From NCBI RefSeq assembly GCF_045037415.1, contig NZ_CP173438.1: a stretch of DNA of 64,000 nucleotides; one strand, given 5' to 3'. Shown one piece after another: positions 13,136 through 53,130 of the stretch; position 1 is the stretch's first letter; each line of letters starts with the position of its first letter. Both the position numbers and the translations under genes were made by a program. The stretch comes from Escherichia coli (GTDB lineage: Bacteria; Pseudomonadota; Gammaproteobacteria; Enterobacterales; Enterobacteriaceae). The notes under the pieces were generated by a model, which saw nothing but the letters and a program-made list of their open reading frames with translations, made no database searches and had not been told where the DNA came from.

Positions 13136-14026
13136 ATGGATGCAAAACAAACGCGGCAGGGCGTATTACTCGCTCTTGCCGCTTATTTTATTTGGGGTAT
13201 TGCGCCAGCGTACTTCAAACTGATTTACTACGTGCCCGCCGATGAGATCCTGACGCATCGCGTGATCTGGTCGTTTTTCTTTATGGTGGTGCTGATGAGC
13301 ATTTGCCGCCAGTGGTCCTATTTAAAAACGCTGATTCAGACGCCACAGAAAATTTTTATGCTGGCAGTCTCTGCCGTGCTGATTGGTGGCAACTGGCTAC
13401 TGTTTATCTGGGCGGTGAACAATCACCATATGCTGGAAGCGAGCCTTGGTTACTTTATTAACCCACTGGTGAACATTGTGCTGGGGATGATTTTCCTCGG
13501 CGAGCGATTCCGCCGGATGCAATGGCTGGCGGTGATTCTGGCGATTTGTGGCGTGTTGGTTCAGTTGTGGACTTTTGGTTCACTGCCGATCATCGCGCTG
13601 GGGCTGGCGTTTAGTTTTGCTTTCTACGGCCTGGTGCGCAAGAAGATTGCTGTTGAAGCGCAAACCGGCATGTTAATCGAAACTATGTGGTTGCTGCCCG
13701 TGGCGGCGATTTACCTGTTTGCTATTGCCGACAGCTCAACCAGTCATATGGGGCAAAACCCGATGTCGCTGAATTTACTGCTGATCGCCGCCGGTATTGT
13801 CACCACCGTGCCACTGTTGTGTTTTACTGCAGCTGCGACACGCCTGCGTCTCTCAACGTTAGGCTTTTTCCAGTACATTGGTCCGACGCTGATGTTCCTG
13901 CTGGCTGTGACGTTTTATGGTGAAAAACCGGGTGCCGATAAGATGGTGACTTTCGCCTTTATTTGGGTGGCGCTGGCAATTTTTGTGATGGATGCGATTT
14001 ATACGCAGCGTAGAATTTCCAAATAA
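13136..14026 (+). CDS. rarD: EamA/RarD-family permease
   Basis: 296-aa polytopic membrane ORF; N-terminus MDAKQTRQGVLLALAAYFIWGIAP. Confidence 0.9.
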   Translation: MDAKQTRQGVLLALAAYFIWGIAPAYFKLIYYVPADEILTHRVIWSFFFMVVLMSICRQWSYLKTLIQTPQKIFMLAVSAVLIGGNWLLFIWAVNNHHMLEASLGYFINPLVNIVLGMIFLGERFRRMQWLAVILAICGVLVQLWTFGSLPIIALGLAFSFAFYGLVRKKIAVEAQTGMLIETMWLLPVAAIYLFAIADSSTSHMGQNPMSLNLLLIAAGIVTTVPLLCFTAAATRLRLSTLGFFQYIGPTLMFLLAVTFYGEKPGADKMVTFAFIWVALAIFVMDAIYTQRRISK

Positions 14027-14120
14027 AAAATAAATATATTCTGAAAAAATATGCCTGCTCTTGCATAAGAGCGGGAATATTGCCATGCTAACGAAATTCT
14101 TACACAAGGATGTAAAATTA

Positions 14121-14501
14121 ATGTTGCGTATATTTATTCCAACATCTAAAGGCAGAATTTCCAGACGCCGCTATATATTTTCATTTATTTTTACAAATCT
14201 AATTTGTATCTTACTTATTTCTTTTTTTTCCAATGCCGGGGCTGGTTTCTTTGTTATAACATCTACCATTCTTTTACATTATCTCGTTATCAACATGAAT
14301 TGCCAACGACTCCGGGATAGTGGTTTTACTTATATAAAAACTTATATTTTTAGTACATTAGTAGTCTATATCATTTCTTTCATCATCATGGTTGCTGAGC
14401 ATTTTGACTGTTCTGGCAATGGTTCGATGATTTTTTTGATTTGTTATTTTTCCACCTTTGGCATGTTAGTTCTTGCCCCCACTGATTCCCCCCGTAAATA
14501 A
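14121..14501 (+). CDS. yigG: DUF805-family inner membrane protein
   Basis: ORF 14061..14501; RISRRRY motif near the N-terminus is typical of DUF805. Start chosen at MLRIF to give 126 aa. Sits in a low-GC block. Confidence 0.65.
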
Positions 14502-14515
14502 TTAATGGAGATTTT

Positions 14516-14896
14516 ATGAGTAAGGATTATATGGCAGATGGCTCATTAACTGAAAAGTGGAAGTACCGCTTTTCGTTTTATGATGAACATGGCTTCCCTG
14601 GATTTTGGGGTGCAAGCCCAGAATATAAACAAGCATTAAAAGGATTAAACACAAGGCAAAAGATAATAATTAGAACAAATGTTATTGCTTTTTTCTTCTC
14701 GTGGGTCTATTTATTTGTATTGGGTTTATGGAAGAAGGCTATTGTTGTTCTATTCCTGGCGATATTTTCTTTAATTTTTGGTTACATGATTGGCTATAAT
14801 GTATTTGGATTCATTATCGCCGCTTATGTTTCATACAATACCAACAGATGGTTCTATGAAAAAGAAGTAAAAGGTATTCATACCTGGAGCCTTTAA
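14516..14896 (+). CDS. yigF: DUF2628-like inner membrane protein
   Basis: 126-aa ORF with two TM segments; 14 bp after yigG; low GC. Confidence 0.65.
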   Translation: MSKDYMADGSLTEKWKYRFSFYDEHGFPGFWGASPEYKQALKGLNTRQKIIIRTNVIAFFFSWVYLFVLGLWKKAIVVLFLAIFSLIFGYMIGYNVFGFIIAAYVSYNTNRWFYEKEVKGIHTWSL

Positions 14897-14902
14897 ATAA
14901 TC

Positions 14903-14940
14903 GGTGGCTTAGCCAGGCTAAGCCACCGTTCTCGTTTTTT
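14903..14940 (+). terminator. Rho-independent terminator after yigF (T-run overlaps the corA stop codon)
   Basis: Inverted repeat GGTGGCTTAGCC/GGCTAAGCCACC at 14903-14927, followed by GTTCTCGTTTTTT. Confidence 0.6.
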
Positions 14941-30356: not shown

Positions 30357-31553
30357 ATGCTAAAAGTGTTATTGCTCTTTGTGTTGCTGATTGCGGGGAT
30401 CGTGGTTGGCCCGATGATTGCCGGCCATCAGGGTTACGTGCTGATCCAGACCGACAACTACAATATTGAAACTAGCGTCACGGGCCTCGCGATTATTTTG
30501 ATTCTGGCGATGGTAGTGCTGTTTGCCATTGAGTGGCTACTGCGGCGAATCTTCCGCACAGGCGCGCACACCCGTGGGTGGTTTGTCGGACGTAAGCGTC
30601 GCCGTGCACGTAAGCAGACCGAACAGGCGCTGCTGAAACTGGCGGAAGGCGATTATCAGCAAGTTGAAAAGCTGATGGCGAAAAATGCCGATCACGCTGA
30701 ACAACCGGTGGTGAACTATCTACTGGCAGCCGAAGCCGCGCAACAACGTGGTGATGAAGCACGCGCCAACCAACATCTGGAACGCGCAGCGGAGCTGGCC
30801 GGCAATGACACCATTCCGGTAGAAATCACCCGTGTACGTCTGCAACTGGCCCGTAATGAAAACCATGCAGCACGTCACGGCGTTGATAAGCTGCTGGAAG
30901 TTACGCCACGCCATCCGGAAGTATTACGTCTGGCGGAACAGGCGTATATCCGCACAGGGGCATGGAGTTCGCTGCTGGATATCATCCCATCAATGGCGAA
31001 AGCCCATGTTGGTGATGAAGAACATCGTGCAATGCTGGAACAACAGGCATGGATTGGCCTGATGGATCAGGCGCGTGCCGATAACGGTAGCGAAGGTTTG
31101 CGTAACTGGTGGAAAAACCAAAGCCGGAAAACGCGTCATCAGGTGGCCTTGCAGGTGGCAATGGCGGAACATCTTATTGAGTGTGACGATCATGATACTG
31201 CCCAGCAAATTATCATCGACGGCCTGAAACGCCAGTATGACGATCGCCTGCTGCTGCCGATCCCGCGTCTGAAAACCAATAATCCGGAACAGCTGGAAAA
31301 AGTGCTGCGCCAACAGATCAAAAACGTGGGCGATCGCCCGCTGTTGTGGAGCACACTGGGTCAGTCGCTGATGAAACACGGAGAATGGCAGGAAGCATCG
31401 CTCGCCTTCCGCGCAGCGCTGAAACAACGTCCGGACGCCTACGATTACGCATGGCTTGCCGACGCGCTGGACAGACTGCACAAGCCGGAAGAAGCCGCAG
31501 CGATGCGTCGCGACGGTTTGATGCTAACGTTGCAAAACAACCCACCGCAGTAA
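30357..31553 (+). CDS. hemY: HemY (TPR-containing membrane protein of the hem operon)
   Basis: 398-aa ORF with two N-terminal TM helices; starts 3 bp after hemX. Confidence 0.9.
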   Translation: MLKVLLLFVLLIAGIVVGPMIAGHQGYVLIQTDNYNIETSVTGLAIILILAMVVLFAIEWLLRRIFRTGAHTRGWFVGRKRRRARKQTEQALLKLAEGDYQQVEKLMAKNADHAEQPVVNYLLAAEAAQQRGDEARANQHLERAAELAGNDTIPVEITRVRLQLARNENHAARHGVDKLLEVTPRHPEVLRLAEQAYIRTGAWSSLLDIIPSMAKAHVGDEEHRAMLEQQAWIGLMDQARADNGSEGLRNWWKNQSRKTRHQVALQVAMAEHLIECDDHDTAQQIIIDGLKRQYDDRLLLPIPRLKTNNPEQLEKVLRQQIKNVGDRPLLWSTLGQSLMKHGEWQEASLAFRAALKQRPDAYDYAWLADALDRLHKPEEAAAMRRDGLMLTLQNNPPQ

Positions 31554-31556
31554 TCT

Positions 31557-31588
31557 ATATCGCCTCGTTCAGGGGCGATATTTTTTTA
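31557..31588 (+). terminator. Rho-independent terminator of the hemCDXY operon
   Basis: ATATCGCC-TCGTTCAGG-GGCGATAT hairpin followed by TTTTTTT. Confidence 0.7.
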
Positions 31589-31593
31589 CAAGG

Positions 31594-32193
31594 ATGTCAA
31601 ACATGCGCACACCGTCCCGCTATATTTTCCGCTTACCATCACATGAAATTAATCCTTTTCGGGCAACGCTCTTGCTGATTTTGTTGATATGTGCCGTTCT
31701 GGCTGGCGTAAGTTGGCTGATTCTGTCCTTCGTACGTACAGGCAATACATTCATCTTCTGGTTAACACTTTTTATTGGGTATCTGATAGCCATTGCGAAG
31801 CAGGAAAAAATCAAGCTCATCGAGAAGCGCCAGATTATGGCTGATAAACGTCAGGGACTTTCCATTTGTCAGTTCGCACGCCAATTTTCCCCCCACACCG
31901 TAGATACATGGGTGATTCGGGCTGTGTGGAATACCTTACAAGGAAACGGCTATATCGATTATCCATTACCACTGAAAGCCAGTGATAAACTGGACGATGA
32001 TCTGGATTTAGTAAACGATGCAGACGAGTTAGAAGAGCTGGTCGAAGATATTGCCGCTCGTTGTGGGCGCGATCTACGCGGAATAGAAGATAATCCGTTT
32101 CTTCCCATCACCACGGTAGGTTCTCTTGTAAGTGTATTAAACGCACAACCGATGACCCAAGAGCGACGTAGCCTGTTGTTTACTCGGTCATAA
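31594..32193 (+). CDS. Hypothetical two-TM membrane protein with acidic C-terminal domain
   Basis: 199-aa ORF in a 640-bp region between hemY and the GlmZ 3' end; AAGGA 9 nt upstream of the second ATG (31603); two hydrophobic helices then DDDLDLVNDADELEELVED. No family recognised. Confidence 0.45.
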   Translation: MSNMRTPSRYIFRLPSHEINPFRATLLLILLICAVLAGVSWLILSFVRTGNTFIFWLTLFIGYLIAIAKQEKIKLIEKRQIMADKRQGLSICQFARQFSPHTVDTWVIRAVWNTLQGNGYIDYPLPLKASDKLDDDLDLVNDADELEELVEDIAARCGRDLRGIEDNPFLPITTVGSLVSVLNAQPMTQERRSLLFTRS

Positions 32194-32398
32194 AAAAACG
32201 CCTGCTCTTATTACGGAGCAGGCGTTAAAACAGGTCTGTATGACAACAAGTGGGTGCTTCACTCAACGTTGTGTCCATGGTGTCTGATGAGGCAGAAGCG
32301 ACATCTGTCAGTGGACGATAAGCACCGTAAACGGCTCTGCGTCATTCCGGAGTTTATGAGGCACTAAGGCGAACATAAGAGATGGAATGAGCATCTAC
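32193..32398 (-). ncRNA. glmZ: GlmZ small regulatory RNA (activator of glmS translation)
   Basis: Minus-strand sequence from 32398 reads GTAGATGCTCATTCCATCTCTTATGTTCGCCTTAGTGCCTCATAAACTCCGGAATGAC and ends with hairpin AACGCCTGCTC-CGTAATAAGA-GCAGGCGTT plus TTTTTTT; matches my memory of E. coli GlmZ, located between hemY and aslA. Confidence 0.85.
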
Positions 32399-32822
32399 TC
32401 GTTTATTATGCCACAGAGAACCGGGAAATAACATCCCTTAACACTTGTTATGAGATAATTCTGTAATCCTCTTTGCTTCCTGAGTAATAACTTCCTGAGT
32501 GAATATTTCTCCTGCGCACAATTCTACACATATATATAATGAATAATAAAAGTCATTCAATTAATAACATATATATTAATTGCAGATAAAACTAAAAACA
32601 GCATCAATAATCAACGCGATATAACATCACCGCCTTACATATCACCTGCGCCAGAGGTAGGATTGAAAACGCTCTCCTGATTTTCCAATTCATTTTCTGG
32701 ATAAATAAATAATTTATTTTTATCACCATTATTTATGCAATCATCCTGTCAGGGAGAGGGATCTCAATTATCAATGCTTAATTACGTCATCATTTTGACG
32801 ACATGAAACCGGAGCATTTTGC

Positions 32823-34478
32823 ATGGAATTTTCGTTTTCACCCAAACTTCTTGTTGTTGCTGTCGCCGCAGCTCTTCCTCTCATAGCCAGCGCAGCAGAT
32901 ACCCCGTCAACCGCCACCGCACGCAAAGGCTTTGCCGGATACGATCACCCAAACCAGTATCTGGTTAAACCGGCGACCACTATTGCCGACAACATGATGC
33001 CGGTGATGCAGCATCCTGCACAAGACAAAGAAACCCAGCAGAAACTGGCGGAACTTGAGAAAAAAACCGGTAAGAAACCGAACGTGGTTGTTTTCTTGCT
33101 GGATGATGTGGGCTGGATGGACGTTGGCTTTAACGGCGGCGGCGTGGCGGTGGGTAACCCTACACCAGATATCGACGCCGTTGCCAGCCAGGGGCTGATT
33201 TTAACTTCGGCGTATTCTCAACCGAGTTCTTCCCCAACCCGCGCCACGATTCTCACCGGACAATACTCCATCCACCACGGCATTCTGATGCCGCCAATGT
33301 ACGGGCAACCGGGCGGTCTGCAAGGGTTAACCACGCTGCCACAGTTGCTGCACGATCAGGGCTACGTCACCCAGGCTATCGGGAAATGGCATATGGGGGA
33401 AAACAAAGAGTCGCAGCCGCAGAACGTTGGCTTTGATGATTTCCGCGGCTTTAACTCGGTATCTGATATGTATACCGAATGGCGTGATGTTCATGTCAAC
33501 CCGGAAGTCGCCCTGAGCCCGGATCGTTCTGAATACATCCAAAAACTGCCGTTTAGCAAAGATGACGTTCATGCCGTGCGCGGCGGTGAACAGGAAGCCA
33601 TTGCCGACATTACGCCGAAATATATGGAAGATCTGGATCAACGCTGGATGGAATATGGCGTTAAGTTCCTCGACAAGATGGCGAAGAGTGATAAGCCTTT
33701 CTTCCTCTATTACGGCACTCGCGGCTGTCACTTCGATAACTACCCGAACGCCAAATATGCGGGTAGCTCTCCGGCGCGCACCTCTTACGGCGACTGCATG
33801 GTGGAGATGAACGATATCTTCGCCAATCTGTATAAAGCACTGGAGAAAAACGGTCAGCTTGATAACACGCTGATTGTGTTCACCTCTGATAACGGTCCGG
33901 AAGCCGAAGTTCCGCCGCACGGTCGCACGCCGTTCCGCGGTGCGAAAGGTTCTACATGGGAAGGCGGCGTTCGTGTGCCAACCTTCGTTTACTGGAAAGG
34001 CATGATCCAACCGCGTAAATCTGACGGCATTGTCGATCTGGCGGATCTCTTCCCTACGGCGCTGGATCTGGCGGGGCATCCTGGGGCGAAAGTAGCGAAT
34101 TTAGTACCGAAAACCACCTTTATCGATGGTGTGGACCAGACATCTTTCTTCCTGGGAACAAATGGTCAGTCTAACCGTAAGGCCGAGCATTACTTCCTCA
34201 ACGGTAAACTTTCTGCTGTGCGTATGGATGAGTTCAAGTATCACGTCCTGATTCAGCAACCTTACGCTTATACCCAGAGCGGATATCAGGGTGGATTCAC
34301 CGGCACAGTAATGCAAACGGCGGGATCGTCGGTGTTTAACCTGTACACCGATCCGCAGGAAAGCGACTCTATCGGCGTGCGCCATATCCCAATGGGTGTA
34401 CCGCTACAGACCGAAATGCATGCGTATATGGAGATCCTGAAAAAATATCCACCACGCGCGCAGATTAAATCTGATTAA
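32823..34478 (+). CDS. aslA: Arylsulfatase-family protein
   Basis: 551-aa ORF with signal peptide and sulfatase signature region ([20 protein letters not shown]). Confidence 0.9.
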
Positions 34479-52670: not shown

Positions 52671-53000
52671 TTACGCCAGGTTAGCGTCGAGGAACTCTTT
52701 CAACTGACCTTTAGACAGTGCGCCCACTTTGGTTGCCGCCACTTCACCGTTTTTGAACAGCAGCAGAGTCGGGATACCACGGATGCCATATTTCGGCGCA
52801 GTGCCAGGGTTTTGATCGATGTTCAGTTTTGCAACGGTCAGTTTGCCCTGATATTCGTCAGCGATTTCATCCAGAATCGGGGCGATCATTTTGCACGGAC
52901 CGCACCACTCTGCCCAGAAATCGACGAGGATCGCCCCGTCCGCTTTGAGTACATCCGTGTCAAAACTGTCGTCAGTCAGGTGAATAATTTTATCGCTCAT
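52671..53000 (-). CDS. trxA: Thioredoxin 1
   Basis: ORF 52671..53105; conserved start [18 protein letters not shown] gives 109 aa; WCGPC active site. Confidence 0.97.
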
Positions 53001-53130
53001 ATATAACTCCACAGGAATAAGCCTGGCGTGTTGGTTTCGTTGTTGGTGTAACATTAACCAACTAAAGGTTGACTTTATTTCACCGGATACGCTTTCGTAA
53101 AGCAATAGTAAGCTGATATTCTACCACACT

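Follow-up and report, generated by a model that had tools for sequence, protein, structure and literature searches.

Sigma-70 promoter class of glmZ and the AT-rich glmZ/aslA spacer in an Escherichia coli chromosome

In a 64-kb stretch of Escherichia coli DNA (the window), the region between hemY and aslA is very probably best explained as a standard E. coli glmZ locus, in which a small RNA (sRNA) gene is read from a sigma-70 promoter and an adjoining AT-rich spacer belongs to aslA. GlmZ acts by base-pairing: it activates translation of glmS, and it is restrained by RapZ and RNase E together with the decoy sRNA GlmY. The gene is well known in E. coli, with its position and promoter class already published, and the question of whether sigma-54 drives E. 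coli glmZ was settled by experiments reported in 2011 (PMC3045617). The small addition made here is that, among the 88 enterobacterial loci listed in a cross-species comparison, sigma-54 and GlrR elements were absent from all 7 that are linked to aslA.

The GlmZ gene and its surroundings

We scanned the whole window with cmscan and detected glmZ (sraJ/ryiA) on the minus strand at 32192..32398 as a match to Rfam family RF00083 (GlmZ_SraJ), with a score of 217.5 bits against a gathering score of 60 and an E-value of 6e-56. The match was untruncated (model positions 1-214 of 214), running from the +1 at G32398 to a 3' end in a U-run at 32192. A sequence-only reading of this DNA had assigned GlmZ to the minus strand at 32193-32398, which the Rfam match bears out except that the claimed 3' end fell one base short. 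In a permissive Rfam rescan of 31500-33000, no other RNA family was found at an E-value of 1 or less. The paralogous decoy sRNA GlmY (RF00128) belongs to the same Rfam clan, CL00011, and has a similar overall fold, but its context is purL/glrK, whereas that in the window is hemY/aslA, and the GlmZ model had the best score of the clan at this locus. Elsewhere in the window, the Rfam TrxA 5' UTR thermometer model (RF02773) matched the minus strand at 52971-53070 with 78.8 bits, compared to its gathering score of 58.

The predicted fold of the RNA had a minimum free energy of -60.8 kcal/mol (z=-3.9), and 0/200 shuffled sequences folded as well. It included the stable stem-loops SL1 and SL2 and a rho-independent terminator, with the terminator hairpin (32197..32226, minus strand) supported by both a terminator scan and the Rfam 3' stem and consisting of 11 pairs (7 G-C) ahead of a seven-T run. 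Alignment with GlmZ of E. coli K-12 showed identity at 206/207 bases. The single difference, a C here and an A in K-12, is located in the apical loop of stem-loop 2 (GCUUCUGC here, GCUUAUGC in K-12), away from the single-stranded stretch close to the 3' end. Because of this near-identity, we infer that the RNA has inherited the function of its K-12 counterpart, and it would be expected to base-pair with glmS, which is located outside the window, and to undergo RapZ-dependent processing by RNase E.

The gene order in the window is hemXY, a 199-aa orphan ORF, glmZ, aslA, aslB, and four tRNA genes. The RefSeq annotation of identical DNA lists hemD, hemX, hemY, a hypothetical protein, aslA, and aslB, followed by tRNA Pro, Leu, His, and Arg, and the segment 31500-32900 was 100% identical to many RefSeq E. 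coli chromosomes. Upstream, hemX and hemY are on the plus strand, placing glmZ convergent with the hemCDXY operon; among the matches listed, hemY adjoined glmZ in 88 fetched enterobacterial loci. The arylsulfatase gene aslA (551 aa; 32823..34478, plus strand), identified from the ORF list and the RefSeq annotation, runs away from glmZ, and the divergent glmZ/aslA arrangement described from the letters was correct. The K-12 gene (b4456) is likewise flanked by hemY and aslA and shares the orientation, promoter architecture, and +1; K-12 differs from the window in the GlmZ loop, at promoter position -23, and in having 44 bp in place of a 635-bp segment that carries the orphan ORF. Since RefSeq (PGAP) records of these genomes contain no glmZ, a covariance-model pass is needed to see the gene.

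The 635-bp segment (31554-32188, 44-47% GC) is situated between hemY and the glmZ terminator. It encodes the strain-variable, 199-aa orphan membrane-protein ORF (31594..32193, plus strand), which is convergent with glmZ and has a stop codon that overlaps the GlmZ U-tail; RefSeq uses an internal start and lists a 196-aa hypothetical protein. At a query coverage of 80% or more, the segment was present in 693/5426 complete E. coli genomes. The 44 bp found in K-12 are unrelated and include a different hemY terminator, and the boundary of the polymorphism lies 3 nt beyond the GlmZ U-tail. From its sequence, the encoded protein seems to carry two hydrophobic helices near the N terminus and to be acidic over its C-terminal half. 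Searches against Pfam, NCBIfam, and PADLOC families returned sub-threshold noise only, and the ORF was absent from E. albertii and all other fetched genera; it is context, outside the sRNA system. On the same side of glmZ, Myers et al. 2013 (PMC3688515) report in their supplementary tables a weak FNR ChIP peak at K-12 position 3984609 (older MG1655 numbering), annotated as "5' of glmZ/hemY" and located near the glmZ 3' end and hemY, with no assigned target or function.

Promoter class of glmZ

Upstream of G32398, the minus strand reads ...GGG ATGTTA TTTCCCGGTTCTCTG TGG CATAAT AAACGA G(+1). The sequence contains an extended -10 element, TGgCATAAT (32405..32413), with TG at -15/-14 and CATAAT at -12..-7, the latter matching the consensus at 5/6 positions and separated from the +1 by 6 bp. 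The -35 hexamer, ATGTTA (32429..32434), is located 18 bp upstream of CATAAT and matches TTGACA at 3/6 positions. This is the arrangement described by Göpel et al. 2011 (NAR 39:1294, PMC3045617), who reported ATGTTA-N15-tggCATAAT as the single, constitutive sigma-70 promoter of Escherichia glmZ. In K-12, mutation of the -10 element abolished glmZ expression and mutation of the -35 element drastically reduced it, while 40 bp of upstream sequence gave full activity, sequence beyond -40 being dispensable (PMC3045617).

Our alignment showed that the window promoter is the same as that of K-12 from -60 to +1 except at position -23 (32421, minus strand), which falls within the -35/-10 spacer and is G here and A in K-12. 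The exact 60-nt promoter allele with G at -23 was found in 1539/5412 E. coli genomes (28%). As E. albertii and the divergent Escherichia strain SCPM also have G at this position, G is probably the older state. By its sequence, the window promoter is assigned to the sigma-70 class, with functional proof coming from the K-12 allele (PMC3045617). In the proposed mechanism, glmZ would be transcribed leftward from this one constitutive promoter, starting at G32398 and using the weak -35, the 18-bp spacer, and the extended -10, and the promoter would be neither sigma-54-dependent nor equipped with GlrR or IHF upstream activating sites.

The sequence-only reading had raised the possibility of a sigma-54 promoter and proposed a scan for -24 GG / -12 GC elements. 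The pattern is present: the G at -23 creates a GG at -24/-23 in the core promoter, CCGGTTCTCTGTGGCA, which together with a GC at -13/-12 gives it a superficial '-24 GG / -12 GC' look. However, the dinucleotides are arranged as GG-N9-GC rather than GG-N10-GC, the flank of the GG is CCGGTT and not TGGCAC, and both dinucleotides lie 1-2 bp closer to the +1 than the sigma-54 elements that other genera have (GG at -26/-25, GC at -14/-13), making the pattern a decoy and a false lead. In the 28% of E. coli genomes with G(-23), a naive GG/GC scan for sigma-54 promoters would wrongly score a hit. The CCGGTTCTCTGTGGCA site has more than 3 mismatches to TGGCAC-N5-TTGCA, and a search for this consensus allowing up to 3 mismatches produced no match at the glmZ core promoter. 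A search for the GlrR motif TGTCN10GACA with up to 1 mismatch found no site in the 424 bp of 32399-32822. The sole sigma-54 consensus match in the spacer, TGACAGGATGATTGCA at 32751-32736, was rejected, as it is without the essential GG and ~340 bp upstream; across the window, matches to the consensus were at or below the level of chance (182 found, 231 expected).

Among the loci listed, most Enterobacterales have glmZ under sigma-54 control, and the promoters controlled by sigma-54 and GlrR (QseF) in Salmonella, Yersinia, and most Enterobacterales precede a homologous sRNA with the same +1. Their -10/-12 region is also homologous to that of the window (TGTGCAATAAT in the window versus TGTGGCATAAT). 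These promoters have TGGCAC at -27..-22 in a GG-N10-GC arrangement, three TGTCN10GACA GlrR sites, and IHF sites, whereas the window has none of these, and all 76 sigma-54-type glmZ promoters listed (76/76) combined GG-N10-GC with TGGCAY and TGC, 1-2 bp further upstream than the decoy. Furthermore, the K-12 promoter, which differs at -23 alone, was unaffected by deletion of glrR or rpoN or by over-expression of GlrR, and a K-12 fragment spanning -424..+32 was not bound by GlrR in gel-shift assays (PMC3045617). We consider it extremely improbable that glmZ of the window is wholly or partly sigma-54-driven, as it is in Salmonella and Yersinia under GlrK/GlrR (QseE/QseF).

Other candidate elements upstream of the sigma-70 promoter were set aside. 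The only call made by a simple sigma-70 scanner was TTGAGA-16-GATGAT at 32767-32740, ~345 bp upstream of glmZ, which Shimada et al. 2014 (PMC3946193) predict as the 'glmZ promoter'. We rejected this call in favor of the experimentally mapped promoter, which the scanner missed because it needs at least 4/6 matches at -35 and ATGTTA has 3/6. A 10-bp direct repeat, ACTCAGGAAG, is present in two copies 15 bp apart (~32473-32497, minus strand; -75 to -100) and is identical in K-12. It was dropped as a glmZ regulator site, being unconserved in E. albertii and Escherichia strain SCPM and located in a region that is dispensable for glmZ.

The glmZ/aslA spacer carried an IS1 element in two strains, E. 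coli PSS-16 (at the equivalent of ~32448) and AVS0068 (at the equivalent of ~32450-32800). In PSS-16, IS1 begins ~50 bp upstream of the glmZ +1 and aslA has lost its 5' part, so that only the core promoter is left, an arrangement that is a natural parallel to the published dispensability of sequence upstream of -40.

glmZ control regions across Enterobacterales

For comparison across species, a pattern scan was performed with one genome per species, which returned at least 120 loci. GlmZ 5' ends were located in 96 of the loci listed, including two from E. coli, and for 88 of these the upstream sequence extended to 330 bp or more; the sample was without Klebsiella, Shigella, E. fergusonii, and Salmonella enterica subsp. 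enterica. The motif TGGCAY-N5-NTGC, with GG at -26/-25 and GC at -14/-13, was present in 76/88 loci listed and usually overlapped CAATAAT. These sigma-54-type loci had a mean of 2.55 GlrR-like sites within 300 bp upstream, and they typically follow yifK and four tRNA genes.

By contrast, a divergent aslA was located 400-525 bp upstream of glmZ in loci from E. coli (two), E. albertii, Escherichia strain SCPM, Superficieibacter, Kluyvera genomosp. 1, and Pseudocitrobacter, and 7/7 of those listed had neither a sigma-54 motif nor a GlrR-like site, with spacers of 25-32% GC. Across the loci listed, aslA linkage was associated with motif loss (Fisher's exact p=1e-7, uncorrected for phylogeny). The motif had also been lost at five listed loci in which glmZ is linked to proM, from Citrobacter youngae, Citrobacter sp. 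Cu233, Phytobacter, a Pluralibacter MAG, and Raoultella.

The absence of sigma-54 and GlrR elements from 7/7 aslA-linked loci listed suggests that an aslB-aslA cassette replaced the ancestral control region. Under this model, the cassette and its AT-rich leader would have replaced the ancestral proM tRNA-glmZ spacer in the Escherichia lineage, and with it the GlrR sites, the IHF sites, and the sigma-54 -24 element. The surviving ancestral -10/-12 region may then have been reused as an extended -10, with a new -35 contributed by the incoming DNA to form a hybrid promoter. The distribution of shared sequence is consistent with such an exchange. On the 3' side of proM, E. coli and other genera have only a ~38-nt tRNA-operon terminator in common, after which aslB begins in E. 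coli, and toward glmZ, resemblance to the ancestral promoter does not extend beyond ~-17..+1. In addition, the segment at -39..-28, GGGATGTTATTT, which overlaps the -35, is shared with the aslA-linked spacers of Pseudocitrobacter and Kluyvera and not with proM-linked genera. The right-hand junction of the replacement can be placed only between ~-28 and -16. As the aslA-linked loci represent few, phylogenetically non-independent lineages and the model draws on a correlation, this association should be interpreted with caution.

The alternative is that sigma-54/GlrR control was lost gradually in Escherichia through point mutations in place, as worded by Göpel et al. (PMC3045617), and that adjacency to aslA is coincidental. 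In Raoultella, Citrobacter youngae, Phytobacter, and the Pluralibacter MAG, the -24 element was lost while proM still adjoins glmZ. By hand count, the E. coli sequence from -36..-7 matched the sigma-70-only promoter of Raoultella, which has no aslA, at 20/30 bases, including TTTCC(A)CGG, compared to 13/30 for Salmonella. Given these aslA-free losses and the likeness to Raoultella, in-place decay could have occurred before, or independently of, insertion of aslA. However, gradual loss fits less well with the absence of every upstream element from 7/7 aslA-linked loci listed, with the restriction of common sequence to the terminator on one side and ~-17..+1 on the other, and with the sharing of GGGATGTTATTT among aslA-linked spacers, and we regard it as unlikely. 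A single structural event, in which insertion of aslB-aslA deleted the GlrR/IHF enhancer and the -24 box, may instead have made glmZ sigma-70-only, a scenario that we judge to be about evenly balanced. If replacement did occur, a horizontally acquired gene would have uncoupled GlmZ synthesis from the QseE/QseF envelope-signaling system. The cross-species pattern offers a testable account of how an acquired cassette could rewire an sRNA promoter from regulated sigma-54 to constitutive sigma-70 control.

The AT-rich spacer and aslA

The divergent intergenic region between glmZ and aslA (32399..32822, 424 bp) had a GC content of 33.5% compared to 52.2% for the window, confirming the strong AT-richness noted from the letters, and both of the A/T-rich strings that had been quoted as examples were present. 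Only 0.47% of 424-bp windows were as low in GC, and the spacer ranked as the second most AT-rich stretch of its length in the 64 kb. Its AT-rich cores are located at 32505-32610 (19-26% GC) and 32664-32716 (26% GC). The most AT-rich stretch, exceeding the glmZ/aslA spacer, is at 14023-14915 of the window, with 30.7% GC over 14023-14446 and 34% over 14492-14915. In the proposed mechanism, the 424-bp spacer would belong functionally to aslA and be dispensable for glmZ beyond -40.

The AT-rich sequence had also been described as carrying phased A/T tracts typical of curved DNA, and neither property was recovered. In the 10-11.5 bp band, the spectral power for AA/TT/AT steps was 0.31, compared to a mean of 0.74 for 500 dinucleotide-preserving shuffles, 93% of which were equal or higher. 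Mean curvature from a wedge model was average (6.1 versus 6.4 for the window), with nothing notable at the quoted strings. The model gave one sharp predicted peak, at ~32817 by the aslA start codon, in the top 0.3% of positions. Only the relative ranking of curvature from this model is used here.

In the sequence-only reading, a curved spacer with helically phased A-tracts would nucleate H-NS, silencing aslA and rendering it cryptic. Low GC, down to 19% in the cores, is in keeping with this idea. IS1 prefers AT-rich DNA, and the insertions in the spacers of the two strains fit this preference. In Table 1 of Shimada et al. 2014 (PMC3946193), which reports genomic SELEX performed in vitro with K-12, the aslA<>glmZ spacer is listed with both RpoD-holoenzyme and H-NS sites. 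Flagging of an H-NS site by genomic SELEX makes H-NS binding plausible, and one paper's supplementary table terms aslA 'latent', Srinivasan 2015 mentioning the gene solely as a mutated 'latent' gene. On the other hand, A/T steps lacked 10-11.5 bp phasing and curvature was average save for the peak at the aslA ATG. For the high-affinity motif of H-NS, TCGATAAATT, the spacer had a single match with 2 mismatches, equivalent to chance, and the literature and supplementary tables searched contained no in vivo H-NS ChIP or hns-mutant expression evidence on aslA. In K1 strains, induction of aslA is also reported in blood, with LL-37, and upon invasion of endothelium (PMC9147696, PMC9141747).

Collectively, these observations leave silencing of aslA through phased curvature and H-NS nucleation rather doubtful. 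The claim of an H-NS-silenced, curved spacer has in vitro H-NS binding in its favor (PMC3946193), and its curvature argument fails; it is plausible that H-NS binds the spacer by virtue of base composition rather than phased A-tract curvature. Nor is aslA simply cryptic, as the reading had assumed, given its reported induction in K1 strains, and we offer crypticity through H-NS silencing as a hypothesis.

On the plus strand of the spacer, Shimada 2014 (PMC3946193) also predicts an aslA promoter, TTAACA-18-TGTAAT (32437-32466), which would be back-to-back with the glmZ -35 and imply an aslA 5' UTR of ~350 nt. Closer to the gene, a palindrome, GTCATCA-N3-TGAcGAC (32786-32806, plus strand), lies 17-37 bp upstream of the aslA ATG and coincides with the spacer's sole strong predicted curvature peak (~32817). 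It closely precedes the GGAG Shine-Dalgarno sequence and could serve as a binding site for a regulator or form a hairpin within the aslA 5' UTR. The palindrome is perfect in K-12 (GTCATCATTTTGATGAC), and E. albertii keeps it through changes on both arms (GACATCA...TGATGTC).
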